From the IMG/VR virus record IMGVR_UViG_2681813235_000001, positions 1 through 41,344 of that record: a stretch of 41,344 nucleotides of DNA; one strand, given 5' to 3'. A model generated the notes under the pieces. That model made no database searches. It was not told where the DNA came from and saw only the letters and a program-made list of their open reading frames with translations. This DNA comes from a virus. Lineage: Duplodnaviria; Heunggongvirae; Uroviricota; Caudoviricetes. Below are positions 5,638 through 41,344 of this stretch, piece after piece; position 1 is the first letter of the stretch, and every line of letters starts with the position of its first letter. Both the position numbers and the translations under genes were made by a program.

Positions 5638-5639
5638 GA

Positions 5640-7914: not shown

Positions 7915-8024
7915 AAGTTTTAATTTATACGCTTGCGTATTGATGGTCAAAACACGTTTTGCTATTGATTGGGTTAATACGCATTGCTATTATCCATTCA
8001 TTGTAATACCAATAGGAATTGATA
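7915..8024. promoter_or_regulatory. oR-like divergent promoter/operator region
   Basis: Intergenic between divergent repressor and Cro-like genes; contains TTGCTATTGATTG (7959-7971), TTGCTATTA (7984-7992) and palindrome CAAAAC-ac-GTTTTG (~7948-7961). Confidence 0.5.
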
Positions 8025-8252
8025 ATGACAAATCAAACCATTCAACTCGCAATCAGTATTACAGGTAGTCAAAAACGACTGGCAGATCTATGCGGTGTAG
8101 CCCAGCCCACTGTTTGGCGTTGGCTACACGGTGGCGGAATTGATGCCCGCTATGTAATGAAAATTGTCTCAGCCACTGGTGGAAAGATTAAACCAGCAGA
8201 TATTCGTCCCGACCTTGCACCATTGTTTAACGCGAGTAATTCTGCCGCCTAA
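8025..8252 (+). CDS. Cro-like HTH regulator
   Basis: 75 aa from ATG 8025 (AGGAA upstream); HTH QKRLADLCGVAQPTVWRW; first gene of the rightward operon. Confidence 0.7.
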   Translation: MTNQTIQLAISITGSQKRLADLCGVAQPTVWRWLHGGGIDARYVMKIVSATGGKIKPADIRPDLAPLFNASNSAA

Positions 8253-8282
8253 ACTGCGGCGTTAACTGATAAGGCAATGATT

Positions 8283-8822: not shown

Positions 8823-8908
8823 CAGGTTCAGAAATGGCGAAAGCCGGTCTGCGCGAACAGAACCGACTTTCAGGTGCAAATCGTAACACACTCATTGCGG
8901 GAGGAATT

Positions 8909-9838: not shown

Positions 9839-10536
9839 AAAACATCGCCGCACAGATGGTTAACTTTGACCGTGAGCAGATGCGTCGGATCGCCAACAAC
9901 ATGCCGGAACAGTACGACGAAAAGCCACAGGTACAGCAGGTAGCGCAGATCATCAACGGTGTGTTCAGCCAGTTACTGGCAACTTTCCCGGCGAGCCTGG
10001 CTAACCGTGACCAGAATGAACTGAACGAAATCCGCCGCCAGTGGGTGCTGGCTTTTCGGGAAAACGGGATCACCACAATGGAACAGGTTAACGCTGGAAT
10101 GCGCGTAGCCCGTCGGCAGAATCGACCATTCCTGCCATCACCCGGGCAGTTTGTCGCCTGGTGCCGGGAAGAAGCATCCGTTAACGCCGGGCTGCCAAAC
10201 GCCAGCGAGCTGGTTGATATGGTTTACGAGTATTGCCGGAAGCGTGGCCTTTATCCGGATGCAGAGTCTTATCCATGGAAATCAAACGCGCACTACTGGT
10301 TGGTTACCAACCTGTATCAGAACATGCGGGCCAATGCGCTTACTGATGCGGAATTACGGCGCAAGGCTGCCGATGAACTGACCTGTATGACCACGCGAAT
10401 TAACCGTGGTGAGACGATACCTGAACCAGTAAAACAACTTCCTGTCATGGGCGGTAGACCTCTAAATCGTGCACAGGCTCTGGCGAAGATCGCAGAAATC
10501 AAAGCGAAGTTTGGGCTGAAAGGAGACAGAGCATGA
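9835..10536 (+). CDS. P: replication protein P (DnaB helicase loader)
   Basis: 233-aa translation matches lambda P from memory almost throughout (MKNIAAQMVNFDREQMRRIANNMPEQYDEKPQVQQVAQIINGVFSQLLATFPASLANRDQNE...). Confidence 0.95.
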   Translation: MKNIAAQMVNFDREQMRRIANNMPEQYDEKPQVQQVAQIINGVFSQLLATFPASLANRDQNELNEIRRQWVLAFRENGITTMEQVNAGMRVARRQNRPFLPSPGQFVAWCREEASVNAGLPNASELVDMVYEYCRKRGLYPDAESYPWKSNAHYWLVTNLYQNMRANALTDAELRRKAADELTCMTTRINRGETIPEPVKQLPVMGGRPLNRAQALAKIAEIKAKFGLKGDRA

Positions 10537-10792
10537 GTGAGCAATACTGGTTTTTGTGTGCAAAATTGGGCTAGAAGGAAATATCAATCGACGCAGAAAT
10601 AATTAAGTTATTTTTTTAATAGAACTGAGCTTGAAGATATGATTTTGCAGGGATACTTACGCTGTGAGCAGTCGAAGACATTGCAACATGCAAGTGATTC
10701 TCAATATTCATAGATGACAAAACATAATGCGAAGATGTAACATATTAATTTCTATGATTTGAAATGTCTAAGTTGTAAAAAGGAAAACTATA

Positions 10793-11050
10793 ATGTATGT
10801 AGATATTTATAAAAGTGATATTTGTAATTCTAAGTATCTTGTTGTCCCAGCGAATACAGTGGTTACAGGAAATGCCCTCGGGGTGAGTGATCCTGACTTC
10901 TCGAAATTTTCAATTATCAAAAAAAGTGAGTTGTTAGAACCTGGGATGATAGGTATCAATGACGTAAGAGCTAAAAGCGATATCAATTCTATTGGATATC
11001 ATATTTTAAGAGTGAGAACTTCTTTTCAAGAAGACACAACTAAAAATTAA
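10793..11050 (+). CDS. hypothetical protein in AT-rich island (weakly YcgL-domain-like)
   Basis: 85-aa ORF with AAAAGGA 8 nt upstream; visibly AT-rich island 10540-11080; weak resemblance MYVDIYKS...SKYLVV to YcgL (M-x-VIYRS...YLYV). Confidence 0.35.
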   Translation: MYVDIYKSDICNSKYLVVPANTVVTGNALGVSDPDFSKFSIIKKSELLEPGMIGINDVRAKSDINSIGYHILRVRTSFQEDTTKN

Positions 11051-11086
11051 TTTTTGATTTTTTTAGAATCAACCTTTCATAATCAT

Positions 11087-11205
11087 GTCATCGGAGCCTG
11101 AACAACTCCGATGACTTCTGCGCTAAACGGGGACGTTTATGCGCACATACAATCCAAATTATCTTCTCCCTTCACAGATGTAGAAATGCACCTGCGGTTT
11201 TTTAT
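11087..11205. repeat. direct repeat copy 1 (hairpin plus ~90-bp conserved segment)
   Basis: Hairpin GTCATCGGAG-(9 nt)-CTCCGATGAC at 11087-11115, then segment near-identical to 13427-13516. Confidence 0.75.
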
Positions 11206-11360: not shown

Positions 11361-11448
11361 CGATATGATTTATCTGGGGATATATTCTTACGCGTTGCCG
11401 CAAAATCGGCACACGGGATTGGCGTCCCGGAATACTACTCAACGCATG

Positions 11449-11469
11449 CCGCGTTAAGCGGTTTTTTTA
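11449..11469 (+). terminator. weak candidate intrinsic terminator
   Basis: CCGC-GTTAA-GCGG followed by TTTTTTT; stem only 4-5 bp. Confidence 0.3.
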
Positions 11470-11624
11470 TGCGCTAAGCACGGCTACGTCCAAATTATGG
11501 TGGGCTGTGTGAGGGCTTCTTCGGGAGCGCCGGGTTTGAGTAGCCGGTTACGCCAACCTTGCACAGTTCACCACCAGTCGATTGGCGTCGTTGGTGGTGA
11601 TGGTTAACCTGATGAGGTGATACT

Positions 11625-12230
11625 ATGACTACTCAATTAGCATTCCACAAAACGACGTTTACCCCGATTTGCCACAATAACAGAATTTGGCTTACTGCCA
11701 CTGAAGTTGGTTTAGCTCTGGAATATGCGGACGATAAAGCAGTTCAGCGTATTTACTCTCGTCACTCAGATGAATTTACAGATATGATGACAAGGGTGGT
11801 CAAAGTGACCACCCCTCGTGGAATGCAGGAGTCTCGAGTATTTAGCCTTCGCGGAGCCCATCTGATCGCCATGTTTGCTCGTACTCCTGTGGCCAAAGAA
11901 TTCCGCCGCTGGGTGCTGGATATTCTCGATCGAGAAATTCAACAATCCCCAATCACAAAACAATTCACTGATAACGAACTTTGCACACTTGCTTGGTTAT
12001 GGCGGGCAAGTGACACAATGTTAACCGCTTGCCAAAACGTCACTCCGCTTCTTCAGGTAGCAGAACACCGCGAAGCCGGTCGCTTCACTTCAATCGAACA
12101 AGAATATCCCCGGATACTCAATAAGGCACAGGCAATCCTTGCCAGAGAAACGGCACATGTAAAATTCCGGCCGTGGCAGGATGATAAGTGGAGTCGAGTA
12201 TTGACGCATTTACGTTCTGAACGGCTGTAA
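11625..12230 (+). CDS. Bro-N domain protein (putative antirepressor-like)
   Basis: N-terminal region (ICHNNRIWLTATEVGLALEY ... RVFSLRGAHLIAMFARTPVAKEFRRWVLDIL) fits the Bro-N pattern from memory; GAGGTG SD. Confidence 0.55.
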   Translation: MTTQLAFHKTTFTPICHNNRIWLTATEVGLALEYADDKAVQRIYSRHSDEFTDMMTRVVKVTTPRGMQESRVFSLRGAHLIAMFARTPVAKEFRRWVLDILDREIQQSPITKQFTDNELCTLAWLWRASDTMLTACQNVTPLLQVAEHREAGRFTSIEQEYPRILNKAQAILARETAHVKFRPWQDDKWSRVLTHLRSERL

Positions 12231-12529
12231 TAAAGTTGCGGGAGAGAAATGCCGCTAGTATTTTGTAATTAATTGAATTCTGACGGTTTAATGAGAAGTC
12301 AAGAACACTACTTGTACTATAATCGTTCGATGTTAGTGAGGGTTTGATGCAAAAAATGAAGTGATTGACCCTAAATTTGCGCGATCAGCGACAGATTGTA
12401 CACCGAGATCCTGTGGGCTGGAATTTGCAGAGAAATACCGAAAATGATATCCAATATTGTTTTCAGTTCCTACATCATACCTGATAAGGGTATAATCATA
12501 AAAATCAGGATAATTCAAGTTATAATTGT

Positions 12530-12946
12530 ATGAATAAAAACGACCTTGAAGCATTATCTGACACTAGGCTTAATGAGGCCAAATGCTTGCTTGATCATGG
12601 CTTTTTTCATGGTGCATATTATCTTTGTGGGTATGCAGTTGAATGTGCATTGAAGGCCTGTATTGCCAAGTCATTTTTACAACATGAGTTTCCAAACAAA
12701 AAAGTCGTAAATGATTCATATACTCATGATTTGTCGCAACTTCTCAAAATTGCCAACTTACATCAAATTTTGATTGCTGACGCAAAAAATGATGTTTCGT
12801 TGGAGATTAACTGGTCGGTCGTTAAAGACTGGAGCGAGCAATTTAGATACGACAATAACATAAGTAAAGCTATGGCCGAACAATTGTTTGATGCTGTAGG
12901 TGACCAAAATTCTGGAGTTTTGAAATGGGTAAAAGCACACTGGTAA
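12530..12946 (+). CDS. HEPN-domain protein
   Basis: 138 aa; central block GAYYLCGYAVECALKACIAKS ... THDLSQLLKIA matches classic HEPN helices; no clear R-x(4-6)-H motif seen; AT-rich. Confidence 0.55.
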   Translation: MNKNDLEALSDTRLNEAKCLLDHGFFHGAYYLCGYAVECALKACIAKSFLQHEFPNKKVVNDSYTHDLSQLLKIANLHQILIADAKNDVSLEINWSVVKDWSEQFRYDNNISKAMAEQLFDAVGDQNSGVLKWVKAHW

Positions 12947-13326
12947 TCGGCAGAGAGTTGACAAAAGATATGGAATTCTCAGGTCAATTTTTGTTAAAAA
13001 AACTCAAGTTACAGAATTTAACTATTGATGCTGCAATGTGGTTTTATTACCCAGATCTATCTTGGAGATATATTTTAGTTATCAGTGACTTCTCAGAACG
13101 TGGACCGGCAGAAATATATAGAAAAATCAGTGAGATAAATAGAAATAGCATATCAAAAAAGTATAAGCCGATACCATTAGAAGCAATTGAGGCTAAGGGG
13201 GATTCAGCTTTTATTTATAAAATGTTAAAAGGATTTGCTAGAGTCAACGATGGTAAAGTTCGCGTTTCTAATTCTATGGTAAATGGTTTAGAAATCGTTG
13301 ACTGTCTGATCTATGAGTTAAAATAA
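12925..13326 (+). CDS. hypothetical protein, overlapping partner of the HEPN gene
   Basis: 133-aa ORF; start overlaps HEPN 3' end by 22 nt with GGAG upstream; no nucleotidyltransferase GS...DxD motif found; AT-rich. Confidence 0.45.
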   Translation: MGKSTLVIGRELTKDMEFSGQFLLKKLKLQNLTIDAAMWFYYPDLSWRYILVISDFSERGPAEIYRKISEINRNSISKKYKPIPLEAIEAKGDSAFIYKMLKGFARVNDGKVRVSNSMVNGLEIVDCLIYELK

Positions 13327-13397
13327 GAAATCTCTTGCTGGGTATCATTATTGTTTAAATGACTTTTGATTTTCAATAATCAACTTGTCATAATTAA

Positions 13398-13516
13398 GTC
13401 ACCGGAGTTTGAACTCCTCCGGTGACTTCTGCGCTAAACGGGGACGTTTATGCGCACATACAATCCAAACTCTCTTCTCCCTTCACAGATGCAGAAATGC
13501 ACCTGCAATTCTTTGC
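13398..13516. repeat. direct repeat copy 2 (hairpin plus ~90-bp conserved segment)
   Basis: Hairpin GTCACCGGAG-(9 nt)-CTCCGGTGAC at 13398-13426, then segment near-identical to 11116-11205; immediately upstream of ninB. Confidence 0.75.
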
Positions 13517-13547
13517 ATCTAGCGTTTGACCTCTGCGGAGGTGAAGC

Positions 13548-14003
13548 GTGAACCTCCCACAAGACGGCATCAAATTACATCGCGGCAACTTCACCGCTAT
13601 CGGTCAGCAGATCCAGCCTTATCTGGAGGAAGGCAAATGCTTTCGCATGGTGCTTAAACCGTGGCGCGAGAGACGCAGTCTTTCCCAGAATGCACTCAGC
13701 CACATGTGGTACAGCGAAATCAGTGAATACCTCATCAGCAGGGGTAAAACGTTCGCCACTCCAGCTTGGGTAAAAGATGCTCTCAAACACACATATCTCG
13801 GTTATGAAACCAAAGACCTGGTTGATGTCGTAACCGGTGATATCACCACTATCCAGTCGTTACGCCATACCTCCGATCTTGATACCGGAGAGATGTATGT
13901 CTTCCTGTGTAAGGTTGAAGCCTGGGCGATGAATATTGGTTGCCATCTGACTATTCCGCAGAGCTGCGAGTTCCAGCAGCTCCGCGACAAGCAGGAGGCG
14001 TAA
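13548..14003 (+). CDS. ninB: NinB-family recombination protein
   Basis: GTG start with GGAGG 6 nt upstream; R-S-L-S-Q-N-x(5)-W block resembles the NinB signature region; nin-region position. Confidence 0.55.
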
Positions 14004-14815: not shown

Positions 14816-14952
14816 TGTTTGAGTTTTATATGGCAGAACTTCTTCGCCACCGCTGGGGGCATCTGCGCTTATATCGTTTCCCCGGTTCTGTTTTGACCGA
14901 TTACCGAATACTGAAGAATTACGCCAAAACCCTGAAAGGAGCTGCCGCATGA
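14812..14952 (+). CDS. ylcG: YlcG-like small protein (46 aa, not in ORF track)
   Basis: Hand-translated: [46 protein letters not shown]; overlaps rusA stop and Q-like start. Confidence 0.55.
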
Positions 14953-15638
14953 ATACCCAATATTTACAGTATGTCCGCGAGCAACTCATTGTGGCTACCG
15001 CTGATTTGAGCGGAGCAACGAAAGGCCAGCTTGAAGCCTGGCTGGAGCATGCACAATTTGATACTGGTACATACAAACGAAAGAAGCGACGCATTCTGGA
15101 TGAGGTAACTGGCAAGATTATTATGCTGGATAATCCGCCGATTTCCGGTAAACAGTCGTACGCAAAAGGTTCATCTGTCGCCCTGATCAGTCCGGTCGAG
15201 TTTTCAACCTCTTCATGGCGCCGCGCTGTTCTGTCTCTCGATGAGCATCAGAAAGCATGGTTGCTGTGGAGTTACAGTGAAAATATTCGCTGGGAGCATC
15301 AGGTTGCCATAACGCAGTGGGCATGGAGCGAGTTTAAGACTCTGTTGGGTACCAGAAAAATTGCAGGTAAGACACTGGAACGCCTGAAGAAGTTGATCTG
15401 GCTGGCGGCACAGGATGTGAAGAGCGAACTGGCAGGGCGTGAGGCTTATGAATACCAGGAACTGGCGTCACTGGTGGGAGTGACATCAAAAAACTGGTCT
15501 GAGACATTCACTGAACGCTGGGTTGCAATGAAGCACATTTTTCTACAGCTTGATAGCGAAGCTTTATTGCTTCTAACGAGAACACGTTCAAAACAAAAGG
15601 CGACATTTTCACAGCAAAATATTGCAAAACTGGATTAA
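14949..15638 (+). CDS. putative late-gene antiterminator (Q-like)
   Basis: 229-aa ORF in the canonical Q position between nin genes and the lysis cassette; not lambda Q by sequence; assignment is positional. Confidence 0.5.
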   Translation: MNTQYLQYVREQLIVATADLSGATKGQLEAWLEHAQFDTGTYKRKKRRILDEVTGKIIMLDNPPISGKQSYAKGSSVALISPVEFSTSSWRRAVLSLDEHQKAWLLWSYSENIRWEHQVAITQWAWSEFKTLLGTRKIAGKTLERLKKLIWLAAQDVKSELAGREAYEYQELASLVGVTSKNWSETFTERWVAMKHIFLQLDSEALLLLTRTRSKQKATFSQQNIAKLD

Positions 15639-17104: not shown

Positions 17105-17261
17105 TACTCCTGTACCGTTTATACCCAATCCGCTGACGTATGGTACCAGTCTGGAGTTGAATGTTGCTCTATTGTCAGCCTTGGGACAATGTAATTTTGA
17201 TAAAACTGGAATCAGAAAGATTGAATCACGGCGCGCTATTTTGCATTCGAAAGACAAATAG
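16989..17261 (+). CDS. Rz1: Rz1-like o-spanin lipoprotein (overlapping Rz in another frame)
   Basis: From ATG 16989 in ORF 16923-17261: MMIVLHVLCLLPLLTGCGNS has a lipobox (LTGC); Pro-rich mature part; starts inside Rz and extends past it. Confidence 0.5.
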   Translation: MMIVLHVLCLLPLLTGCGNSRTVYVSAPVAPLPASLTSDTPVPFIPNPLTYGTSLELNVALLSALGQCNFDKTGIRKIESRRAILHSKDK

Positions 17262-17629
17262 CTCGAGTTATATTTTTCATTATCAGTGCGAATGCGCCTA
17301 ATAAAGCTGTGTATTATGATAATTTTATAAAACTTATGGGCTTAAATTCAGACGCCAGCGTTTTTATAGTGTAATGTAGCAGCTTACATAAAATATGCAT
17401 CGTGATTAACTATTAGTCCAACCTTTTGGACCAATATGAAAGTGGAAGTTTGTACAAATCGTTTGTAGATGATTAAACATGTGTCTAGTAGAGCTAGTCA
17501 TGAACAGGTTTATTACGTATCATTTTGTTTAGATTATCGAGAGTACAACTAGTAGAGCAGCTAATCTTTAGATAGTGCCAGTGATGTTCACTTACGATAA
17601 ACTAACCTTTTCATTCAGTGGAGGTTATG

Positions 17630-18064
17630 ATGTGGCATACATTACTTAACTGGCCTTGGGGAACTGTGTGGTCAGCTGTATCGGCTTTAGGTTCAATTGT
17701 AACTGTTACATTAGGTTTTTGGGCAATGAATGTTTGGCGGCGACAGGAGGCTCTGAAGGCCAAAATGGCTCTGAAAATGGCAGTGGCTGATTATTCAAAT
17801 GCATTATCACAGCTACCTTTATCTCTTAGTCGTAATGTTCGTATTGAAAAAAGGGCCGAGCTACGAGAGTTAAGCCATAAATTAAATGCTATTAATAATG
17901 CTTTTTTGATATGCGAACATATGTTGGAAAAATACCCACGTGTAAACAGCGGTTGTCGTTCTTTATCTGTTGCCCACAAAGAATATATTAGAATGAGAGA
18001 TAATAGTATTCAGGCGAAATATATTTGTCATAATATTCTTTCAGAACAGTTTGTATTCAAATGA
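17630..18064 (+). CDS. hypothetical membrane-anchored protein (cargo between lysis and packaging genes)
   Basis: ORF 17618-18064 begins with GTG; ATGs at 17627/17630 follow GGAGG; N-terminal TM helix; AT-rich gene and flanks. Confidence 0.45.
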   Translation: MWHTLLNWPWGTVWSAVSALGSIVTVTLGFWAMNVWRRQEALKAKMALKMAVADYSNALSQLPLSLSRNVRIEKRAELRELSHKLNAINNAFLICEHMLEKYPRVNSGCRSLSVAHKEYIRMRDNSIQAKYICHNILSEQFVFK

Positions 18065-26204: not shown

Positions 26205-26375
26205 ATGTTTGTGAAACCTGTTAAAGGGCGGTCAGTGCCTGACCCTGCCCGCGGTGACCTTTTGCCCACCGAAGGGCGAAATGTTGACGAGAACAACTAC
26301 TGGCTGCGCCGTGAAGCAGCGGGTGATATCCGGCGCGTGAATAAAAAGGTGAACACCGATGACGATAAGCTTTAA
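26205..26375 (+). CDS. DUF2635-like small protein (56 aa, not in ORF track)
   Basis: Hand-translated MFVKPVKGRSVPDPARGDLLPTEGRNVDENNYWLRREAAGDIRRVNKKVNTDDDKL; typical small gene preceding the sheath in Mu-like tails. Confidence 0.45.
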   Translation: MFVKPVKGRSVPDPARGDLLPTEGRNVDENNYWLRREAAGDIRRVNKKVNTDDDKL

Positions 26376-27855
26376 CACCATTCCGTCGAATACGCTGGTT
26401 CCGCTGTTTTATGCGGAAATGGATAACCAGGCGGCGAATACTGCACAGGACAGCGGGGCATCGTTGCTGATTGGTCACGCCAATAACGGTGCAGAGATTG
26501 TTGCCAACAGTCTGGTGCTGATGCCGTCGGCAGACTATGCACGCCAGATTTGTGGTGCGGGAAGTCAGCTGGCGCGTATGGTCGAGGCTTATCGCCAGAC
26601 CGACCCGTTTGGCGAGCTGTATGTGATTGCCGTTCCGGAAGCCACAGGCGCGTCGGCAACGGTTACGCTGACGGTGACCGGAGCAGCAACCGAAACCGGC
26701 ACGGTGAATGTGTATGTGGGACGTACCCGCGTGCAGGCACCGGTGACCAACGGCGATAACGTCACGACGATTGCCAGCAGTATCAAAGATGCCATCAATG
26801 CCGTTCCGGCCCTGCCGTTTACGGCCTCATCTTCGGCAGGCGTGGTCACACTGACCGCGCGTCATAAGGGGCTTTGCGGGAATGAAATTCCTGTCAGCCT
26901 CAATTACTACGGCTTTGGTGGGGGCGAAGTGCTGCCAGCGGGTGTACAGATTGCCGTGGCGACGGGGACCGCCGGAACGGGCGCTCCGGTTCTCACCGGT
27001 GCGGTGGCTGCAATGGCGGATGAGCCGTTTGATTATATCGGTCTGCCGTTCAACGACACGGCCTCCGTTAACACGCTGGTGACCGAGATGAACGATACCA
27101 GCGGTCGCTGGAGCTATGCGCGTCAGCTGTATGGTCATGTGTATACGGCAAAGATCGGCACGCTGTCAGAACTGGTGACCGCAGGTGACCAGTTTAACCA
27201 GCAGCACATCACCCTGGCGGGGTACGAAAAAGAGACCCAGACGCCTGCCGACGAGCTGGCGGCAAGCCGTACCGCCCGCGCAGCGGTGTTTATCCGCAAC
27301 GATCCGGCACGTCCCACGCAGACCGGTGAGCTGGTGGGTATGCTGCCTGCGCCGAAGGGGAAACGGTTCACGATGACCGAGCAGCAGACCCTGCTGTCTC
27401 ATGGCGTGGCAACGGCGTATGTCGAAAGCGGGGTGCTGCGCATTCAGCGTGATGTCACCACGTACAGGAAAAATGCTTACGGGGTTGCGGATAACAGCTA
27501 CCTCGACAGCGAGACGCTGCATACCAGTGCGTATGTACTGCGCAAACTGAAATCCGTCATTACCAGTAAGTACGGGCGTCACAAGCTTGCCTGTGACGGT
27601 ACCCGCTTTGGTCCCGGTCAGGCGATTGTCACCCCGGCGGTGATCAAAGGGGAACTGCTGGCAACCTACCGTCAGCTCGAGCGTGCGGGGATCGTGGAAA
27701 ACTACGAACTGTTCAAGCAGTACCTGGTTGTGGAGCGTGATGCCAGCGATCCGAACCGCCTGAACACGCTGTTCCCGCCTGACTATGTTAACCAGTTGCG
27801 TGTCTTTGCCGTGGTTAACCAGTTCCGTCTTCAGTATTCAGAGGAGTCTGCATAA
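26359..27855 (+). CDS. contractile tail sheath protein
   Basis: 498-aa ORF followed by tube, chaperone and tape-measure genes in Mu/P2-like order. Confidence 0.8.
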   Translation: MTISFNTIPSNTLVPLFYAEMDNQAANTAQDSGASLLIGHANNGAEIVANSLVLMPSADYARQICGAGSQLARMVEAYRQTDPFGELYVIAVPEATGASATVTLTVTGAATETGTVNVYVGRTRVQAPVTNGDNVTTIASSIKDAINAVPALPFTASSSAGVVTLTARHKGLCGNEIPVSLNYYGFGGGEVLPAGVQIAVATGTAGTGAPVLTGAVAAMADEPFDYIGLPFNDTASVNTLVTEMNDTSGRWSYARQLYGHVYTAKIGTLSELVTAGDQFNQQHITLAGYEKETQTPADELAASRTARAAVFIRNDPARPTQTGELVGMLPAPKGKRFTMTEQQTLLSHGVATAYVESGVLRIQRDVTTYRKNAYGVADNSYLDSETLHTSAYVLRKLKSVITSKYGRHKLACDGTRFGPGQAIVTPAVIKGELLATYRQLERAGIVENYELFKQYLVVERDASDPNRLNTLFPPDYVNQLRVFAVVNQFRLQYSEESA

Positions 27856-28211: not shown

Positions 28212-28480
28212 TGAAAGAGCTTGAGTTAAAGAAACCGATTACCGCTCATGGCGAGACACTCTCCGTACTGGAGTTTGATGAGCCCACCGGGAAAGATGTC
28301 CGCGAGCTGGGGTATCCCTACCAGATGAATCAGGATGAGTCCGTCAGACTTCTGGCGCATGTGGTATCGAAATATATTGTGCGGCTGGCGAAAGTGCCGC
28401 AAAGCTCTGTCGACCAGATGTCTCCGGCAGACCTGAATGCAGCGGCGTGGCTTGTGGCTGGTTTTTTCCTCCAGGCCTGA
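28211..28480 (+). CDS. tail assembly chaperone (short form)
   Basis: 89-aa ORF between tube and tape measure; followed by overlapping -1 frame ORF. Confidence 0.6.
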   Translation: MKELELKKPITAHGETLSVLEFDEPTGKDVRELGYPYQMNQDESVRLLAHVVSKYIVRLAKVPQSSVDQMSPADLNAAAWLVAGFFLQA

Positions 28481-28629
28481 CGGCTGAATACCTTACTGAT
28501 CGCTTCTTTGATTGCGCCAGCTACTGGCGCATTAATCCCTTCGAATTGCTGAATATGCCGATCAGTGAAATTCCCTTGCTGGTCAGTCAGGCAAACAGGA
28601 TAGAGCAGGAGAAACGCACACATGGCTGA
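28447..28629 (+). CDS. -1 frame extension of tail assembly chaperone (programmed frameshift product)
   Basis: Slippery heptamer T_TTT_TTC at 28462-28468 in the zero frame of 28211-28480; -1 frame stays open to 28629, overlapping the tape-measure start. Confidence 0.5.
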   Translation: MACGWFFPPGLTAEYLTDRFFDCASYWRINPFELLNMPISEIPLLVSQANRIEQEKRTHG

Positions 28630-30454
28630 ATTTGAGCTTAAGGCGTTGATCACCGGTGTCGACAGGCTTTCTCCCGCGCTGTCGAAAATGCAAAAGAAAA
28701 TCCGGGGATTTAAACGCCAGGCGGAAGAAGCGTCACAGGGTGGGCTGGCGCTTGGTGGCGGACTGGCAGCGGGTCTGACGCTTTCCCTGAAATCTTATGC
28801 CGATCAGGAAAACGCCGCCACCGGGCTGAAAGTCGCCATGATGGATGCGAATGGCGAGGTTGGAAAGAGCTTTCAGGACATCAATAAACTGGCTATTGGC
28901 CTGGGTAACCAGCTACCCGGTACAACGGCTGATTTCCAGAACATGATGCAGATGCTGGTGCGTCAGGGGATCCCGGCAGAAAACATTCTTGGCGGTGTGG
29001 GTAAAGCGACAGCTTATCTTGCGGTACAACTGAAAAAAACACCGGAAGCGGCTGCTGAGTTTGCTGCAAAGATGCAGGATGCTACCGGAACGGCGTCAGA
29101 AGACATGATGGGGCTGTTCGACACTATCCAGAAGGCGTTTTATCTGGGCGTTGACGATACCAACATGTTGTCCTTCTTCACTAAAACCAGTTCTGTTCTG
29201 AAGATGGTGAACAAGGACGGTCTTCAGGCTGCACAGAGCCTTGCCCCCATCAGCGTCATGATGGATCAGATGGGGATGAACGGGGAGTCGGCAGGTAATG
29301 CCCTGCGAAAAGTTATCCAGTCCGGATTAAGCGTTAAGAAAATCAGGGACGTCAATAAAATCATGGCCCGCCAGAAACTCGGGGTACAGCTCGATTTTAC
29401 TGACGGCAAAGGAAGTTTTGGCGGTCTTGATAACATGTTCAGGCAACTGGCAAAGCTGCGAAAACTGACCGACGTTAAGCGAACAGGTGTACTTAAGGCA
29501 ATATTTGGTGATGATGCCGAAACCCTTCAGGTGGTCAATGCACTAATCGATAAAGGAAAGGATGGCTACGATCAGATCCAGCAGAAGATGAATAAACAGG
29601 CCAGCCTGAATAAACGTGTTCAGGCCCAGCTTGGTACGCTGTCCAACCTGTGGGAGGCAATGACGGGGACCGCAACTAACGGCCTTGCGGCTATTGGCGG
29701 CGCATTTTCTGGTGACGCCAAAAATATCACGCAATGGCTGGGGGAGTTGGGGGAGAAATTCACGAAGTTTGCGGATGAAAATCCCCGGGTTATTCGCGGC
29801 GTCGTCGGGCTTGCTGCCGGTCTTGCGATTCTGAAACTGGGATTGATGGGCGTGGGCAGTGCCATCAGTATCGTCAGCAGGATCATGTCGATGACGCCGA
29901 TTGGCATGATTGCGACGGCGATTGCCCTGGCTGCGGGATTAATTATCACTAACTGGGATGTTGTCGGACCTTATTTTAAGAAACTCTGGGAAACCATTAG
30001 TCCTTATTTTGAGGCTGGCTGGGAACTTCTGAAGAAGGTTTTTGCCTGGTCGCCGCTGGGGATGGTGATCAATAACTGGGGACCGGTTGTTAAGTGGTTT
30101 CAGGATATGTGGGATAAGCTGAAGCCGATTATTGAATGGTTTACCGACAGTTCCGGTGACACGGTCGATGCCATTAACTCGGCGCAGTGGGGCGCGGGTG
30201 CTTATGATGCTTATGGGACGGGAATACCGGCACGGGGATACACTCCTTATCCGGCGGTGGATCCGGCTCAGGCAAACAACGCCTCCGATGCCACAGGCTC
30301 GAATCCCTTCATGATTAATAAAGCTACCGCGCCAAAAGTTGATGGTGAGATCAAGGTATCATTTATAAATATGCCACCAGATATGCGGGTTACGGAAACA
30401 CGCTCCAGTGGCATTGATATAAATCACGATGTTGGCTATACCCGATTTTGGTAG
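28622..30454 (+). CDS. tail tape measure protein
   Basis: 610 aa, Ala/Gly/Lys-rich with hydrophobic central segment; canonical position. Confidence 0.85.
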   Translation: MAEFELKALITGVDRLSPALSKMQKKIRGFKRQAEEASQGGLALGGGLAAGLTLSLKSYADQENAATGLKVAMMDANGEVGKSFQDINKLAIGLGNQLPGTTADFQNMMQMLVRQGIPAENILGGVGKATAYLAVQLKKTPEAAAEFAAKMQDATGTASEDMMGLFDTIQKAFYLGVDDTNMLSFFTKTSSVLKMVNKDGLQAAQSLAPISVMMDQMGMNGESAGNALRKVIQSGLSVKKIRDVNKIMARQKLGVQLDFTDGKGSFGGLDNMFRQLAKLRKLTDVKRTGVLKAIFGDDAETLQVVNALIDKGKDGYDQIQQKMNKQASLNKRVQAQLGTLSNLWEAMTGTATNGLAAIGGAFSGDAKNITQWLGELGEKFTKFADENPRVIRGVVGLAAGLAILKLGLMGVGSAISIVSRIMSMTPIGMIATAIALAAGLIITNWDVVGPYFKKLWETISPYFEAGWELLKKVFAWSPLGMVINNWGPVVKWFQDMWDKLKPIIEWFTDSSGDTVDAINSAQWGAGAYDAYGTGIPARGYTPYPAVDPAQANNASDATGSNPFMINKATAPKVDGEIKVSFINMPPDMRVTETRSSGIDINHDVGYTRFW

Positions 30455-30545
30455 CCAGGATTCCCCTCACAGGTATTGCTGGTTGTAAGTCATAAATAGA
30501 GTGATAGAATTAATGCACATTTAGAAAAATGTTAATAGGCGAAAA

Positions 30546-31076
30546 ATGAAAGGCTATATCACAGCAAGTGTAATTCTTGGAGCAGCGGCTATTTTTTCAT
30601 CTCTCATAATCTCTGGCAACATCTCCTTTAAAGATGAACATATTATTCAGTTATCTGGAGGAGCCATAAAACTTGGTGATGTTTATAAAGAAAATAAATT
30701 GATAAGTGCAAAGATTATTTTTCCAGATAATCAGGGTGAACAGATTCTTGTTGTCGACGGCAATCCTGAAAACTTTAAGGAGGATTTTCAGGAGAAATTA
30801 AATAAAGTAATAAAAACTTTAAATGCGTCAAAGAAAAAAGATGAAGAGAAAGTTAGCCTGGATAATTTAAGTGTTATTGAAGAGTCTAAACTAGAGCTCG
30901 TTTCTGCGGTGCGTTACTCTGCTCAGTATGTTCCTATGTTTACTCTGACGCTGGACAAAAAAGAAATTACCATGCCTAAAAATACGGTAATATTTCCATT
31001 TGCCAGCGATGAAACAGCTAAGTATTTAAATGAACAACAGCAAAAGTATAAAGATTCGTTGTTTCTGACTCGCTAA
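30546..31076 (+). CDS. hypothetical exported/membrane-anchored protein (AT-rich cargo within tail cluster)
   Basis: 176 aa; N-terminal hydrophobic signal/anchor (ASVILGAAAIFSSLIISG); visibly AT-rich; own terminator follows. Confidence 0.45.
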   Translation: MKGYITASVILGAAAIFSSLIISGNISFKDEHIIQLSGGAIKLGDVYKENKLISAKIIFPDNQGEQILVVDGNPENFKEDFQEKLNKVIKTLNASKKKDEEKVSLDNLSVIEESKLELVSAVRYSAQYVPMFTLTLDKKEITMPKNTVIFPFASDETAKYLNEQQQKYKDSLFLTR

Positions 31077-31095
31077 TTAATAAAATTCATTACAA

Positions 31096-31126
31096 GGCCA
31101 CCTTCTAATAGGTGGCTTTTTTATTT
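31096..31126 (+). terminator. Rho-independent terminator
   Basis: GCCACC-TTCTAATA-GGTGGC followed by TTTTTTATTTT. Confidence 0.6.
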
Positions 31127-31137
31127 TCGGAGTGTAT

Positions 31138-32466
31138 ATGACGTGGAAAGACAGGCTTCAGGATGCGTCATTTCGAGGTGTGCCGTTTAAGGTTGAAGAA
31201 GAAAGTGCGGGAACCGGCCGTCGTGTGGAAACACACGAATATCCGAACCGCGACAAACCCTATACCGAAGATCTGGGAAAAGTCACTTTCCGCCCGTCCA
31301 TCACAGCTTATGTGGTGGGAGATGACTGCTTTGACCAGCGCGATCGCCTGATTGAAGCGCTGAATAAACCCGGTCCCGGCACGCTTGTCCACCCGACATA
31401 TGGTGAGCTGAAAGTCTGTGTTGACGGGGAAGTTCGGGTCAGCACATCGAAAAGTGAAGGGCGTATTGTCCGCTTTGACCTGAAGTTTGTCGAAGCGGGA
31501 GAACTCTCTTACCCCACATCAGGTGCGGCGACGGCGCAGACGCTGATGTCATCCTGTTCTGCACTGGATGACTGCATCAGTGACAGTTTCAGTGGTTTCA
31601 GTATCGATGGTGTGGCGGATTTCGTGCAGAACGACGTTATCGGTAATGCCAGCATAATACTGGGGTATGTTTCTGATGCGATGAAAGTGGTGGATTCTGC
31701 CGTATCGGATGCCGCCAGGCTGTTGCAGGGGGATATCTCGGTACTTCTGCCGCCGCCATCGTCAGGCAAAAATTTCGTTGAGCAGGTGCAGAAAATGTGG
31801 CGTACCGGGAAACGCCTTTATGGTAACGCCAGCGACCTGGTCACCATGATCAAAACGCTTTCCGGTGTCAGCCTCGGCAGCGATCTGCAACCGCGCGGCG
31901 TCTGGAAAACGGACAGTAAAACCACCGCCACGGCGACGCAGCAGCGTAACGTGGTTGCCAGCACCCTTCGTACGACCGCAATCAGCGAAGCGGCGTATGC
32001 CGTCACCCGATTGCCTGCGCCAACAACTTCCGCGGTGATGCAGAATTCCGCAGTGGGGCAGGCAACAACACCCGCGCAGAGCACTGGCTGGCCTTCCGTC
32101 ACGCATCCGGCACTGAACAATGCACCGGCGGTGAAAAACACGGTTGACCTGCCGACGTGGGAAGAACTGACTGACATTCGCGACACACTGAATACGGCAA
32201 TTGATAAGGAGTTGTCCCGTACAACCAGCGATGCGCTGTTTCTGGCGCTGCGCCGGGTGAAAGCAGATCTGAATGCGGATATCAACACGCGCCTTGAACA
32301 GTCTGCACGGATCATTCAGCGCACACCGGATGAGGTTTTACCCGCGCTGGTGCTGGCAGCGACCTGGTTTGATAACGCGGCGCGTGACGCGGACATTATC
32401 CGGCGTAATGCCATTACGCATCCCGGCTTTGTGCCGGTGATCCCTCTGAAGGTGCCAGTGCAATGA
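31138..32466 (+). CDS. DNA circularisation protein (Mu N-like)
   Basis: ATG 31138 with GGAG upstream (ORF 31132 begins with GTG); N-terminal MTWKDRLQDASFRGVPF...THEYPNRD fits the Mu gpN-type N-terminal domain from memory. Confidence 0.7.
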   Translation: MTWKDRLQDASFRGVPFKVEEESAGTGRRVETHEYPNRDKPYTEDLGKVTFRPSITAYVVGDDCFDQRDRLIEALNKPGPGTLVHPTYGELKVCVDGEVRVSTSKSEGRIVRFDLKFVEAGELSYPTSGAATAQTLMSSCSALDDCISDSFSGFSIDGVADFVQNDVIGNASIILGYVSDAMKVVDSAVSDAARLLQGDISVLLPPPSSGKNFVEQVQKMWRTGKRLYGNASDLVTMIKTLSGVSLGSDLQPRGVWKTDSKTTATATQQRNVVASTLRTTAISEAAYAVTRLPAPTTSAVMQNSAVGQATTPAQSTGWPSVTHPALNNAPAVKNTVDLPTWEELTDIRDTLNTAIDKELSRTTSDALFLALRRVKADLNADINTRLEQSARIIQRTPDEVLPALVLAATWFDNAARDADIIRRNAITHPGFVPVIPLKVPVQ

Positions 32467-33542
32467 ACGACAATGTCACGCTACGGGTAAATGGCCGGGA
32501 GTGGAATGGCTGGACATCGGTGCGCATCGGTGCCGGTATTGAACGGCTGGCGCGGGATTTCAGTGTGGAGATCACCCGCCAGTGGCCGGGAGATGAGGGT
32601 ATTACCACGCTTCAGCCGCGCATTAAAAACGGTTCAAAAGTGGAGGTGCTGATTGGTGATGAGCGGGTGATCACCGGCTGGGTGGAGGCGACGCCCGTTC
32701 GTTACGATGCCCGTTCGGTCAGCACCGGTATTGCCGGACGCAGTCTGACCGCTGACCTGATTGACTGTGCAGCCGAACCGACACAGTTTAACGGACGATC
32801 GCTGGTACAGATTGCGCAGGCGCTTGCTGCGCCTTTCGGCATTGAGGTGGTGAACAACGGTGCGCCGTCGGGTGTTATTCCTGATGTCCAGCCTGATCAC
32901 GGTGAAACGGTGATTGAGGTAATCAACAAAATACTCGGTCAGCAGCAGGCACTGGCTTACGACGACCCGCACGGCAGGCTGGTGATTGGCGGTATTGGCT
33001 CAACGCGGGCACATACTGCGCTGGTACTCGGGGAAAACATCCTTTCCTGCGATACGGAGAAGAGTATCCGGGAGCGGTTTTCTGTTTACCAGGTGGCGGG
33101 GCAGCGTGCCGGAAACGACGATGATTTCGGTGAGGCCACCACCACCGCGCTGCGGGCCCGCACAGAGGACGCATTTATTGCCCGTTACCGTCCGATGCAT
33201 ATCAGGCAGACAGGGCAGGCTACGGGGGCAGGCTGTATTGCCCGTGCGGACTTTGAAGCCCGACAACGGGCGGCGCGGACGGATGAAACCACCTATGTGG
33301 TGCAGGGCTGGCGACAGGGTAACGGTACGCTGTGGCAGCCCAACCAGCGGGTGATTGTCTTTGATCCGGTCTGTGGTTTCGACAATACCGAACTGCTTGT
33401 TTCGGAAGTCACGTTTACTCAGGACCAGAACGGCACCCTGACGGAAATCCGTGTCGGCCCACCTGATGCTTATCTGCCTGAACCCGAAGTCCCCGGCGCG
33501 CGGAAAAAGAAAAAAGCCAGAGTACAGGAGGACCCGTTCTGA
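32463..33542 (+). CDS. Mu P-like baseplate/tail protein
   Basis: 359 aa; position and overlapping start consistent with Mu gpP homologues. Confidence 0.7.
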   Translation: MNDNVTLRVNGREWNGWTSVRIGAGIERLARDFSVEITRQWPGDEGITTLQPRIKNGSKVEVLIGDERVITGWVEATPVRYDARSVSTGIAGRSLTADLIDCAAEPTQFNGRSLVQIAQALAAPFGIEVVNNGAPSGVIPDVQPDHGETVIEVINKILGQQQALAYDDPHGRLVIGGIGSTRAHTALVLGENILSCDTEKSIRERFSVYQVAGQRAGNDDDFGEATTTALRARTEDAFIARYRPMHIRQTGQATGAGCIARADFEARQRAARTDETTYVVQGWRQGNGTLWQPNQRVIVFDPVCGFDNTELLVSEVTFTQDQNGTLTEIRVGPPDAYLPEPEVPGARKKKKARVQEDPF

Positions 33543-38256: not shown

Positions 38257-38730
38257 TTGTACATAAAGACAATCGACTACTATCGTATGCCTGCATTGGT
38301 ATTGGGTAGCTGCGCTTATAAGTTTATGCACCAGCAGGGCACGTTCACACCTATTGTCAAGGTTGGCGCTACAACACTAACACCTACAGGCACACCACAA
38401 GGTTTTTATGAGCGTATAGGGGATACTTTTAAATGCTGGATAAATTTTTATGAGAATGGTGTTGATTTAAGAATTCTTTCTGGGCAATTCAAAATTGAGG
38501 GGTTGCCATTTGCTATAACGTCGTTAGATAGCACCACAAGCTTCCCTGTTGTTCACGCTGCATATATTAAAACAACGGCTATCGGCATGTCGGCCACAAT
38601 GTCAGGGACCACCATTAACCTCAGAAAGAATTATAGTTCTTCCTTGTTTAATGGCAGTGACTTTATCTCAAGCTTGGAGCATTTCATTAAGTTTAAAATA
38701 GAGTCCACGGTTGCAAGAACAGCAGTATAA
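38257..38730 (+). CDS. hypothetical protein (Thr/Ser-rich)
   Basis: 157-aa ORF followed by a terminator shared with the convergent acyltransferase gene. Confidence 0.35.
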   Translation: MYIKTIDYYRMPALVLGSCAYKFMHQQGTFTPIVKVGATTLTPTGTPQGFYERIGDTFKCWINFYENGVDLRILSGQFKIEGLPFAITSLDSTTSFPVVHAAYIKTTAIGMSATMSGTTINLRKNYSSSLFNGSDFISSLEHFIKFKIESTVARTAV

Positions 38731-38731
38731 T

Positions 38732-38760
38732 AAAAGCGCCCGGTTGGGCGCTTTTATTTC
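38732..38760. terminator. bidirectional intrinsic terminator between convergent genes
   Basis: AAAGCGCCC-GGTT-GGGCGCTTT flanked by A/T tracts on both sides. Confidence 0.5.
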
Positions 38761-39695
38761 TATAGCAAATACTTTACTTTGCTATTTAGCTTAACTAATA
38801 CGTAAGAAACAGGAACTAGAACCCCAATAACAAAAAGATATCGTAGTGCACTTAATTTGTCATCGTATACATAATCCTGCCCAATGAATATTATTGCGGG
38901 ATGAACTAAATAAACAGCCGTAGCAAAGGAAGATAGGTGTTTATACTTTCCAAGAATATCAATCTTCATTATGTAAGTGAACAATAACGGCGAAATAAGC
39001 AATAATGAAAACATCATATCTAATTGCTTATCTGCACCGAATAACTTCAGATTAAGATAAGATTCTGCAATCAACAATGCAAAGGCTGATGCGACTATCG
39101 GCAAGCCATAATTTTTTACATTACTTATGCCAGCTCTGCGGATAAGTAAACCAATGATCATAAATGGAAGACAGTCAAATAAGAAGTTTCTATGGGATGG
39201 GGTAAATGCAAGAACCTTTGATATAATTCCGCTGAAAACATTTAGGTTTGCAGCATATTGAAGTAAGGTGCCAGATATATATAAAATCATTGACAAAATT
39301 ATCAAGGTGCTTGCTGGTTTGCCCATCAATAAATAAAGTAGGCATCCAGCCAAGATTACTCCAGTTATATACCATAAAGCATAATAACCATTAAATATAT
39401 TTATTAGAGTAGTAACAACTCCTGCTTTACCAAGCCAAAATGGGAGGTATATAATAGACCATACGACATATAAAATAAGCATCCTGGAAATCCACTTTAT
39501 GAAGTCTTTCCCTGTTTCAATTCTAGTAAAAAAATAACCAGTTATTATAAGAAATAGAGGTACTGATAATCTAAAAATTCCGTTAACAAGGAGGTGACTT
39601 ACTGTTGTATTAAGCTCTCTAAGAATATCAAGGTGTATAAATACAACAAAAAATGCCGCAGTAACTTTTAATATATCTATTGATAGATGTCTCAT
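38760..39695 (-). CDS. acyltransferase-3 family integral membrane protein (putative O-antigen acetyltransferase, lysogenic conversion)
   Basis: Polytopic membrane protein with many hydrophobic helices, AT-rich, next to the integrase, the usual site for oac-type conversion genes; first ATG at 39695 (ORF from GTG at 39710). Confidence 0.65.
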   Translation of the reverse strand: MRHLSIDILKVTAAFFVVFIHLDILRELNTTVSHLLVNGIFRLSVPLFLIITGYFFTRIETGKDFIKWISRMLILYVVWSIIYLPFWLGKAGVVTTLINIFNGYYALWYITGVILAGCLLYLLMGKPASTLIILSMILYISGTLLQYAANLNVFSGIISKVLAFTPSHRNFLFDCLPFMIIGLLIRRAGISNVKNYGLPIVASAFALLIAESYLNLKLFGADKQLDMMFSLLLISPLLFTYIMKIDILGKYKHLSSFATAVYLVHPAIIFIGQDYVYDDKLSALRYLFVIGVLVPVSYVLVKLNSKVKYLL

Positions 39696-39708
39696 TGATA
39701 GATGTCTC
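39679..39708. repeat. perfect 15-bp tandem duplication spanning the acyltransferase start
   Basis: ATTGATAGATGTCTC at 39679-39693 repeated at 39694-39708; on the coding strand gives GTG-AGACATCTATCA / ATG-AGACATCTATCA (MRHLS-MRHLS). Confidence 0.8.
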
Positions 39709-39988
39709 ACATGCGTCTAAGAAGGAAATTGGCAGTATTTTATGAATTATGACTTTAAAATGATTAACAATCAACATATTACATCATTTGCACTAGTAGC
39801 CTTGATCATAGAATCAGCATCTGTTTGGCCTGTCGTTCACGGCATAGACATTCACAAGGTTATTTAACCAAGCGCAACTATATCTTGCCAGACAAATCAT
39901 TCTGACTGCGGTTTTGTGTTTTTTAACTTGATCGACTCCCGGCTTTAGCAATGCTGTGTATTTATTCAGTATAAATGGAGGGCGGGTT

Positions 39989-40153
39989 ATGGCACGCAGA
40001 TACGAGATACCCTGCGCTTTTACGGCAGCAATCAAATCAGAACCAAGTGGTCGCAAGATGGTGTCAACGCAGGACTTTGTAACACAGCGGGCAAAGGTCA
40101 ACAGGCACTGGTCACAAGTGAATATTTGTAGTAATTGTGACGATCATAATTAA
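39989..40153 (+). CDS. hypothetical small protein next to integrase (very uncertain)
   Basis: ATG 39989 preceded by GGAGGG at 7 nt; 54 aa; no motif recognised. Confidence 0.2.
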   Translation: MARRYEIPCAFTAAIKSEPSGRKMVSTQDFVTQRAKVNRHWSQVNICSNCDDHN

Positions 40154-40186: not shown

Positions 40187-41344
40187 TTACTCCACCTTCC
40201 CATCAAGCCAATCCGCCCACCACTGCATCATTTCTCTGCGCTTATCTAGATACTGAGCATGGTTGTAAATCCCGCGCACAGATCCGCCGTTGGCATGTGC
40301 CAGTTGCACTTCAATAGCATCAGCAGGCCATTCGTGCTCGTTCATAATCGTGCTGAATTCATGCCTGAATCCGTGACCGCTTTCCAGACCTTCATAGCCG
40401 ATTTGTTTGATCACAAGCAGTACAGCGTTCTCGCAAATTGGCTTCTTCTTATCGTTGCGCCCGGCAAAAACAAACTCTGATACTGGTTTGGTGATTGAGC
40501 TTAGCGTAGTGAGAAGTTCAACCACCTGGTCTGACATAGGAACCACATGAATTTTGCGTCCCTTCATCACACTGGCGTCGATGGTGATAATCCTGTTTTC
40601 AAAATCGACGTTCTTCCATTGCATGGAACGAAGCTCTTTCGTTCTTAGGGCGGTGTAGCGTAAAATTTTAGTAGCAATGAGCGATACGATACTTCCTGAA
40701 AATGTTGCCAGTGCTTTGTTGAATGCCGGGATCTGGTCTGCAGGAAGAAACGGGAAGTTCTTCTTGCGGTATCCCTTCATGGCGTCAGCAAGGTCAGGTG
40801 CCGGGTTATATTTAGCCCTACCGGTGACAATAGCGTAACGGAAAACCTCGCCGCATCTTCTGCGGGCTTTGTTGGCTCGCTCCATTGCACCGCGATCTTC
40901 AAATCTGCGGATTACTTCCAGCAGTTGCATCGGCTCAATATCCTGAATTTCAATGCCGCCGATGATAGGTAAAATGTCGTCATCAAACATTTTGGCAAGT
41001 TCAGTTGCATAGCCTACTGACCAGACTTGCTTCTTGTGCTCGTACCATTCCTTGTAAATCGCACTAAAGGAATTGTTGTTAGACGAAGCCTTTTTCGCCT
41101 TTACCGGATCGATGCCGACCGAGATGTCTTTCCTCGCAGTCCATGCTTTATCCCTTGCCTCTTGCAAAGTCATAAGCGGATATTTTCCGACGGTCAGGAT
41201 TTTCTCCTTACCGTCAATCTTGTAGCGAAGCTGCCATACCTTTTTCCCTGACACAGGGACATAAAGGTACAGGCCATTACCATCGAGAAGGCGGTATGGT
41301 TTTTCTTTCGGCTTTGCTGCTTCAATCTGCTTAACGGTGAGCAT
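40187..41344 (-). CDS. tyrosine integrase, P4-like family
   Basis: 385 aa; N-terminal MLTVKQIEAAKPKEKPYRLLDGNGLYLYV...GKKVWQLRY typical of P4-type integrase arm-binding domains; C-terminal HGFRHEFST...H..G...Y region consistent with the tyrosine-recombinase catalytic domain; start codon is the last 3 nt of the window. Confidence 0.85.
   Translation of the reverse strand: MLTVKQIEAAKPKEKPYRLLDGNGLYLYVPVSGKKVWQLRYKIDGKEKILTVGKYPLMTLQEARDKAWTARKDISVGIDPVKAKKASSNNNSFSAIYKEWYEHKKQVWSVGYATELAKMFDDDILPIIGGIEIQDIEPMQLLEVIRRFEDRGAMERANKARRRCGEVFRYAIVTGRAKYNPAPDLADAMKGYRKKNFPFLPADQIPAFNKALATFSGSIVSLIATKILRYTALRTKELRSMQWKNVDFENRIITIDASVMKGRKIHVVPMSDQVVELLTTLSSITKPVSEFVFAGRNDKKKPICENAVLLVIKQIGYEGLESGHGFRHEFSTIMNEHEWPADAIEVQLAHANGGSVRGIYNHAQYLDKRREMMQWWADWLDGKVE

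Follow-up and report, generated by a model that had tools for sequence, protein, structure and literature searches.

A single-gene variable cassette at the tape measure/gp43 junction of SfV-type prophages encodes a predicted membrane-anchored, periplasm-facing protein

Why should the tail operon of a lambdoid prophage, in which the genes are otherwise closely packed, be interrupted by a short AT-rich gene, and is this gene a part of the tail or a passenger? The question is raised by the window analysed here, i.e., the 41,344 nucleotides of the IMG/VR virus record IMGVR_UViG_2681813235_000001, which represent a complete lambdoid prophage of the SfV/SfI/SfII type (lambdoid head, Mu-like tail) from Escherichia coli. 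The gene, an open reading frame (ORF) of 176 amino acids (aa), lies between the gene for the tail tape measure protein (TMP) and a gene similar to Mu gp43 (hereafter gp43). An earlier examination of the letters of the window (hereafter the sequence-only reading) had interpreted it as a moron. The locus is made up of the following elements.

28622-30454, plus strand: TMP gene, the left flank (PF10145, E = 1.3e-26; PHROG tape-measure families)
30455-31110, 656 bp, GC about 0.34: variable cassette (very probably a moron) at the TMP/gp43 junction
30546-31076, plus strand: 176-aa ORF, family phrog_5485, RefSeq WP_000679479.1 'hypothetical protein'
31138-32466, plus strand: Mu gp43-like 'DNA circularization'/baseplate hub gene, the right flank (PF07157, E = 3.8e-34; phrog_184, baseplate hub)

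The ORF begins at the first start codon following a stop, is annotated identically in RefSeq, and is the only substantial ORF within the interval. Its GC content is 0.34, compared with 0.51 in the TMP gene, 0.56 in gp43 and 0.51-0.58 in the neighbouring tail genes, and in a sliding profile GC falls to 0.33-0.37 solely across approximately 30350-31100. The ORF and its AT-richness relative to the flanking tail genes, as described in the sequence-only reading, are thus confirmed. A spurious ORF is ruled out by the full-length conservation of the family and the confident fold prediction described below. The tail genes between 26359 and 37529 overlap or are separated by a few bases at most at every junction apart from TMP/gp43, except for the chaperone-TMP junction, which is bridged by a frameshift ORF (28447-28629). 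Because all the other junctions are tight, the TMP/gp43 junction is the one real break in the tail operon, and the gene does interrupt a tightly overlapping operon, as had been claimed.

Comparison of homologous tail clusters shows that the interrupting DNA is missing from close relatives. The flanking sequences (29800-30454 and 31111-31900) are 94-96% identical to those of the isolated phages SfV, SfI, SfII, and vB_EcoM-689R6, in which the span is 1,480 bp, as against 2,101 bp in the window, and the cassette is missing. The SfIV junction is likewise empty. Homology to SfII, SKA5, and a locus with a PH cargo stops at 30448-30454 (the TMP stop codon) and resumes at 31111-31114, inside the T-run of the terminator described below; in the empty SfII junction, the homology limits are separated by 45 bp holding only an annotated terminator. 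The flanking module is found in 1096 of 5426 complete E. coli genomes (~20%), and 174 of these 1096 carry the cassette (~16%). In an evenly spaced sample of the module-bearing matches, about half are of the empty form. In other relatives, the slot is occupied by different genes, and six cargos, including that of the window, were recognized.

176-aa ORF, plus strand, represented by the window: 179 of 5426 genomes
162-aa ORF, plus strand, represented by vB_EcoM-720R4: 101 of 5426 genomes
170-aa ORF, plus strand, represented by phage SKA5: 85 of 5426 genomes
148-aa tRNA_anti-like OB protein, minus strand, represented by E. coli 30EVA1: 72 of 5426 genomes
125-aa bPH_1 protein, plus strand, represented by E. 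coli GPEC1201: 28 of 5426 genomes
145-aa ORF, minus strand, represented by E. coli CUPS SST 5/1: 6 of 5426 genomes

No similarity is detectable among the six cargos. All of them are AT-rich (GC 0.31-0.41), two of the six are on the opposite strand, and five of the six possess an N-terminal hydrophobic export or anchor segment. Scans of the alternative cargos against Pfam, NCBIfam, and PADLOC returned nothing informative, the only matches being the bPH_1 and tRNA_anti-like ones for two of them. The TMP/gp43 junction of SfV-like prophages is therefore a cassette slot, and the 176-aa gene is not a conserved tail component, because it is absent from SfV-type phages, is replaced by unrelated genes, and is carried by a minority of the module-bearing genomes. 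No description of a hotspot at this junction was found in the literature. A search for flanking direct repeats and terminal inverted repeats of the cassette found only the terminator hairpin, and an Rfam scan detected no RNA family in the cassette. With no repeats pointing to transposition or site-specific insertion, exchange via the conserved flanks is the simplest route for its acquisition.

The characteristics by which morons are recognized were taken from PMC3594210 (after Juhala et al. 2000). The cassette is extra DNA relative to close relatives with conserved gene order, its base composition deviates from that of its neighbours, and it ends in a terminator, although the empty SfII junction has one too. 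The characteristics named there also include a promoter of its own, for which a candidate site is described below, and expression from the repressed prophage. Presence and absence, composition, and replacement cargos thus support the moron interpretation of the sequence-only reading, the observation that would have refuted it (the gene conserved as a structural tail component in related phages) was not made, and it is very probable that the element is a moron and not a structural gene.

The profile of phrog_5485 covers the 176-aa protein from end to end (E = 3.8e-108; residues 1-176 on profile positions 1-176 of 176), and this family, like every other that the protein matches in PHROGs, is one of unknown function. 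Neither the protein nor 60 family members scanned along with it have an informative match in Pfam, NCBIfam, or PADLOC; in PADLOC-DB v2.0.0, the protein has no match at E values up to 1, and none was found for a distant homolog (see below) or the five alternative cargos. Searches with tblastn of the protein and of a distant homolog against 50,697 deposited phage genomes gave no match, and all known copies of the gene come from prophages and IMG/VR contigs. Near-identical copies dominate (524 member sequences in the cluster, 92 IMG/VR contigs), and when the family is clustered at 50%, an exhaustive profile search gives 77 representatives, which with few exceptions are 170-180 aa long. The carriers include E. 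coli isolates of human, animal, urinary tract infection (UTI), and avian origin.

At 41-59% identity, the family extends to Leclercia, Edwardsiella, and uncultured phages, in which the gene invariably has a TMP gene on one side and a gp43 homolog on the other. Both neighbours are present in 77 of the 81 loci examined; the other four consist of three contig edges and one IS200-type insertion. The gene is more diverged than its neighbours (53% identity versus 68-86% for the tail proteins), and the TMPs adjoining family copies share only 36-44% identity among themselves. Outside this junction, Lelliottia amnigena has an intact homolog with a terminator beside icd (5809-6560 of the locus), where, apart from the last 31 TMP codons upstream (tblastn, E = 1e-5), neither gp43 nor any other phage gene is left. 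This copy is a relic of a decayed prophage that kept the gene. Distant members (~23% identity, E = 1.6e-10 from the profile of close homologs) are found in Pseudomonas and marine bacteria, in integrative islands of ~8-11 kb without tail genes, one of which is inserted into an FKBP gene. These islands contain genes for a serine recombinase or integrase, an Mrr-type nuclease, a resolvase, and a DUF5906 protein. The family is thus independent of tails, as seen in the Lelliottia and island contexts. In one Pseudomonas/marine island, the distant homolog is preceded by a 180-aa ORF with a signal peptide and without a known family.

What kind of protein does the cassette encode? An AlphaFold model built from a 60-sequence alignment is confident (pLDDT 91.9, pTM 0.76) and consists of a helix (residues 2-23), four strands (32-36, 39-44, 46-58, and 65-72), a helix (74-93), two further strands (114-126 and 132-143), and a C-terminal helix (149-171). 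Two segments of the protein are predicted.

30549-30614, plus strand: predicted N-terminal transmembrane anchor, type II, N-in/C-out (codons 2-23)
30636-31073, plus strand: predicted periplasmic alpha/beta domain of four strands, a helix, a beta-hairpin, and a helix (codons ~31-176)

The best 19-residue Kyte-Doolittle window (2.11) is at residue 5 and coincides with the first helix, in agreement with the N-terminal signal or anchor noted in the sequence-only reading. The prediction of export holds across the family: 58 of 60 members have an N-terminal hydrophobic segment with a median uncharged stretch of 23 aa, which is flanked by net positive charge on its N-side and net negative charge on its C-side, and in one member a charged N-terminal extension of 116 aa precedes the segment. 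This family-wide pattern favours a type II membrane anchor with a periplasmic alpha/beta domain over a cleaved signal peptide, and the product is probably an extracytoplasmic membrane-anchored protein. It is not a lipoprotein, because it has no cysteine and hence no lipobox; lipobox-like strings in a few family members fall mid-helix. A profile search of the Protein Data Bank (PDB) sequences found nothing, and there is no solved structural relative. The only significant structural relative found by Foldseek is a predicted structure in BFVD, the 'lipoprotein' A0A2H4P829 of Pseudomonas phage ventosus (E = 5.5e-7, probability 1.00, TM score 0.57/0.67, identity 15%). It is likewise phage-encoded and envelope-targeted, but has 144 aa and is, by its name, lipid-anchored rather than helix-anchored.

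The signals that may govern expression of the gene, and the start of the gene downstream, are the following.

30483-30510, plus strand: promoter-like site, TTGTAA-16 nt-TAGAAT with an upstream TG (extended -10), a consensus match in silico only
31094-31126, plus strand: intrinsic-terminator-like hairpin, core GGCCACCT/AGGTGGCT, plus U-run
31128-31140, plus strand: Shine-Dalgarno GGAG (31128-31131) and ATG (31138) of the gp43-like gene

The terminator has a stem of 10 bp (31094-31119) and a T-run extending through 31126; its RNA folds at -15.6 kcal/mol (z = -4.7), and none of 200 shuffled sequences folds equally well. A hairpin with a U-run ends every junction state (the window, SKA5, the empty SfII, Leclercia, and Edwardsiella), and the stem sequences differ. 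The right boundary, consisting of the T-run and CGGAGTnTATATG, which is the ribosome-binding site and start of gp43, is also common to all the junction states. Since a terminator is present even in the empty SfII site, it must be ascribed to the junction rather than to the insert alone. Therefore, of the earlier claim that the gene has its own terminator, the strong hairpin with its U-run stands, whereas its exclusive ownership by the insert does not. The claim that the downstream gene restarts with its own Shine-Dalgarno sequence holds, and the ATG at 31138 is the start used by RefSeq. In one IMG/VR prophage (locus 6560-7250), an IS200/IS605-type transposase gene is located between the terminator hairpin of the moron and gp43. 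The promoter-like site is only a lead, because the region holds no more matches of this kind than shuffled sequences do (5 versus 6.7 expected). A -35-like TTGnnA is aligned in the Leclercia and Lelliottia orthologs, and upstream elements are seen in those of Edwardsiella (TGtTATAAT) and Lelliottia (TATAAT).

One gene elsewhere in the prophage bears on how such a terminator would be tolerated.

14949-15638, plus strand: Q-like late antiterminator (phrog_304, E = 1e-107)

Taken together, these features suggest a horizontally acquired, self-contained cassette that occupies a recombination-prone slot and encodes a membrane-anchored, periplasm-facing protein that protects the lysogen at its envelope, a reading to which we assign a probability of about 0.5. 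A weak sigma-70 promoter of its own would drive transcription of the gene in the lysogen, and this transcription would halt at the hairpin, keeping the baseplate genes silent. In lambdoid phages, Q-modified RNA polymerase reads through intrinsic terminators, and the presence of a Q-type antiterminator in the prophage would explain why a terminator inside the late operon is tolerated. During lytic growth, the Q-modified polymerase would pass the terminator, and the insert would therefore be harmless to tail expression. The product would be a bitopic inner-membrane protein with a short cytoplasmic N-terminus, one transmembrane helix, and a C-terminal periplasmic alpha/beta domain of ~145 aa. No conserved catalytic-type residues are seen, so this domain is most likely a binding protein, and it would hinder the penetration or DNA delivery of superinfecting phages. 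By analogy with HK97 gp15 (see below), superinfection exclusion, which the sequence-only reading had named alongside a virulence or fitness factor, appears to us the single most likely function, though the proposal is a tentative one. Its context includes the mostly exported cargos of the slot and the distant homologs beside a restriction-type nuclease in mobile islands. The bolder proposal, that the junction is an undescribed single-gene hotspot and phrog_5485 a new class of periplasm-facing exclusion proteins intercepting the incoming tail tip or TMP, is doubtful.

The closest parallel among known systems is one of arrangement. In HK97, gp15 is a moron beside the TMP gene and specifies an inner-membrane protein that prevents the entry of DNA (Cumby et al. 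2012, reviewed in PMC3594210). It shares with the gene studied here a stand-alone position in a tail operon next to the TMP gene, with a terminator of its own (annotation of NC_002167), a composition unlike that of the adjacent genes, and its absence in related phages; both products are inner-membrane proteins, that of the window by prediction. In contrast, gp15 has 62 aa and is located upstream of the TMP gene, whereas the present gene, in a contractile Mu-like module, is downstream and encodes 176 aa with a large predicted periplasmic domain; no homology between the two was detected (hhalign probability 0.14%). P22 SieA is an inner-membrane superinfection exclusion protein (PMC10883804). It resembles the 176-aa protein in being a prophage-encoded membrane protein of similar size (164 aa), and it blocks DNA entry, as is proposed above for the 176-aa protein; its locus, however, is next to mnt/ant, and no homology was detected (hhalign probability 0.2%, confined to 21 hydrophobic residues). 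SieA is polytopic, whereas the 176-aa protein has a predicted single anchor and a folded periplasmic domain.

Other parallels are looser. The lambda genes lom and bor encode outer-membrane proteins with roles in the interaction with eukaryotic hosts (PMC3594210). They too are extra AT-rich genes in or next to the late or tail genes, with signals of their own and products that belong to the envelope, and antitermination of late transcription allows them to be tolerated; they show no similarity to the 176-aa protein, for which another compartment is predicted. The lipoprotein-type exclusion proteins Cor, Llp, and Ltp have a lipobox with an invariant cysteine at the end of the signal peptide, and the 176-aa protein, which is without cysteine, does not belong to this type. 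In P2-like phages and P4-like satellites, hotspots of anti-phage systems were reportedly described by Rousset et al. (2022). Such hotspots and the slot described here share a fixed backbone position and mutually exclusive, unrelated cargos (here six, plus the empty state) that close relatives exchange. The slot differs in being inside an SfV-like tail operon and in holding single small genes mostly for exported proteins, and no cargo of the slot matches a known defence system.

Several observations weigh against the reading proposed above. The protein has no similarity to known exclusion or defence proteins in PADLOC, in PHROGs, or in the hhalign comparisons with HK97 gp15 and P22 SieA, and literature searches for its accession and PHROG identifier found no paper that mentions it. 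The promoter is a consensus match of a kind that is no commoner here than in shuffled sequence, the terminator is shared with the empty junction, and the N-terminal segment could conceivably be a cleaved signal peptide instead of an anchor. Moreover, in the Enterobacterales the gene is always at this junction (77 of 81 viral loci, as well as Leclercia and Edwardsiella), and so strict a position could point to a function that is tied to the location or to late expression and benefits the phage and not the host.

This last point is the basis of one alternative, in which the gene is expressed late, by read-through with the tail genes, and its product acts in the envelope of the lysing cell, for example by blocking injection of progeny DNA into debris or infected cells, modulating lysis, or conditioning the envelope. 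T5 Llp acts in this way, in that it stops the new phages from injecting into cell debris or into cells that have been infected before. The orientation of the gene is that of the late operon, the prophage has a Q antiterminator, and the position at the junction is strictly conserved in E. coli, Leclercia, and Edwardsiella. However, the gene is dispensable in SfV, SfI, SfII, and SfIV, two of the alternative cargos are on the opposite strand and therefore cannot be passengers of the late operon, an intact copy survives without phage genes, and homologs are found in non-phage islands; a late function is thus quite improbable. The strand and position of the gene between TMP and gp43, kept even in diverged prophages, would also suit an accessory assembly or structural protein tied to the tape measure or the baseplate hub. 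Yet viable related phages lack it, the genes that replace it are unrelated and some of them oppositely oriented, its predicted export is incompatible with tail assembly in the cytoplasm, and it is found alongside quite dissimilar TMPs as well as in places devoid of tail genes. A role in the tail is accordingly the least credible of all the explanations, with hardly any probability left to it. A structural or assembly protein of Mu-like contractile tails was also considered as a class and rejected on the absence from SfV, SfI, SfII, and SfIV, the predicted export, and the homologs without tails.

The remaining alternatives keep the function in the lysogen. An envelope fitness or virulence factor unrelated to phages, analogous to lambda Bor or Lom and conferring, for example, stress tolerance, serum resistance, or colonisation, is unlikely, though it has points in its favour: an exported protein encoded by a prophage moron, carriers among human, animal, UTI, and avian isolates, a gene kept in a decayed prophage, and the naming of such functions in a review of morons (PMC3594210). 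Against it, Bor and Lom are outer-membrane proteins, whereas for the 176-aa protein, which has no lipobox, an inner-membrane anchor is predicted; no similarity to virulence families was found in Pfam or NCBIfam, and the distant homologs in marine and Pseudomonas islands have an Mrr nuclease beside them, surroundings in which defence cargo is more usual. The protein could also be an orphan immunity protein against a toxin acting in the periplasm, such as a type VI secretion system effector, a colicin, or a tailocin-related activity. Its small size, its export or anchoring, the lack of a catalytic motif, and its carriage on mobile elements would fit, but no toxin or secretion-system gene adjoins it in the contexts examined and no family match was obtained, which leaves this explanation a very slight chance.

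The landmark genes in the rest of the prophage are listed here.

7222-7950: CI-like repressor
26359-27855: sheath, the first gene of the Mu-like contractile tail module
32463-33542: gp44-like hub
38760-39710, minus strand: acyltransferase-like gene
40187-41344: integrase

In the tail module, a Leclercia adecarboxylata prophage (8013-9808) has two additional genes between gp43 and gp44, for proteins of 94 aa and 503 aa, the larger of which matches 'tail protein' families in PHROG, and the window has neither of them; the gp43-gp44 interval is a second variable point of the same module. The gene at 38760-39710, in the region 38400-40000, has a GC of ~0.33, adjoins the integrase, shows a weak O-acetyltransferase match (phrog_3333, E = 6e-8), and occupies the place of the O-antigen modification genes in SfV-type phages. 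An AT-rich island at 5200-7200 (GC 0.33-0.41), which may be a second module with an accessory or exclusion role, adjoins the CI repressor gene and contains the gene for a serine/threonine kinase-like product (5640-6686, phrog_2361) and that for a protein of 153 aa labelled RuvC-like (6680-7141, phrog_3875). The AT-rich islands at 10400-11200, 12400-13600, and 17200-18000 (GC 0.34-0.40) may be additional morons, and their ORFs of unknown function include those of phrog_5737 (12530-12946), phrog_5760 (12925-13326), and phrog_6169 (17618-18064). Directly upstream of an anti-repressor (Ant) gene (11625-12230), Rfam matches are found to isrK (11396-11468) and the C4 antisense RNA (11493-11578); the region is a P1/P7 immI-like, antisense-controlled ant module in a lambdoid prophage.

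As it stands, the feature is an ordinary uncharacterised moron. The family had already been catalogued as hypothetical (phrog_5485, WP_000679479.1), and to this are added the slot with its multiple cargos, the occurrence of the family outside tails, and a confident model without solved relatives. The value of the analysis is that a structural role is ruled out and that the likely topology, the family, and its distribution are defined. The locus is also a clean natural cassette slot in a tail operon, the limits of which are the TMP stop codon on one side and the terminator T-run and gp43 ribosome-binding site on the other. If superinfection exclusion were true, the family and the five alternative cargos would form a compact set of envelope-level anti-phage factors, the type of prophage that carries them being present in about one fifth of complete E. 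coli genomes. The finding would then bear on host range in phage therapy and on the way in which contractile-tail phages cross the periplasm.

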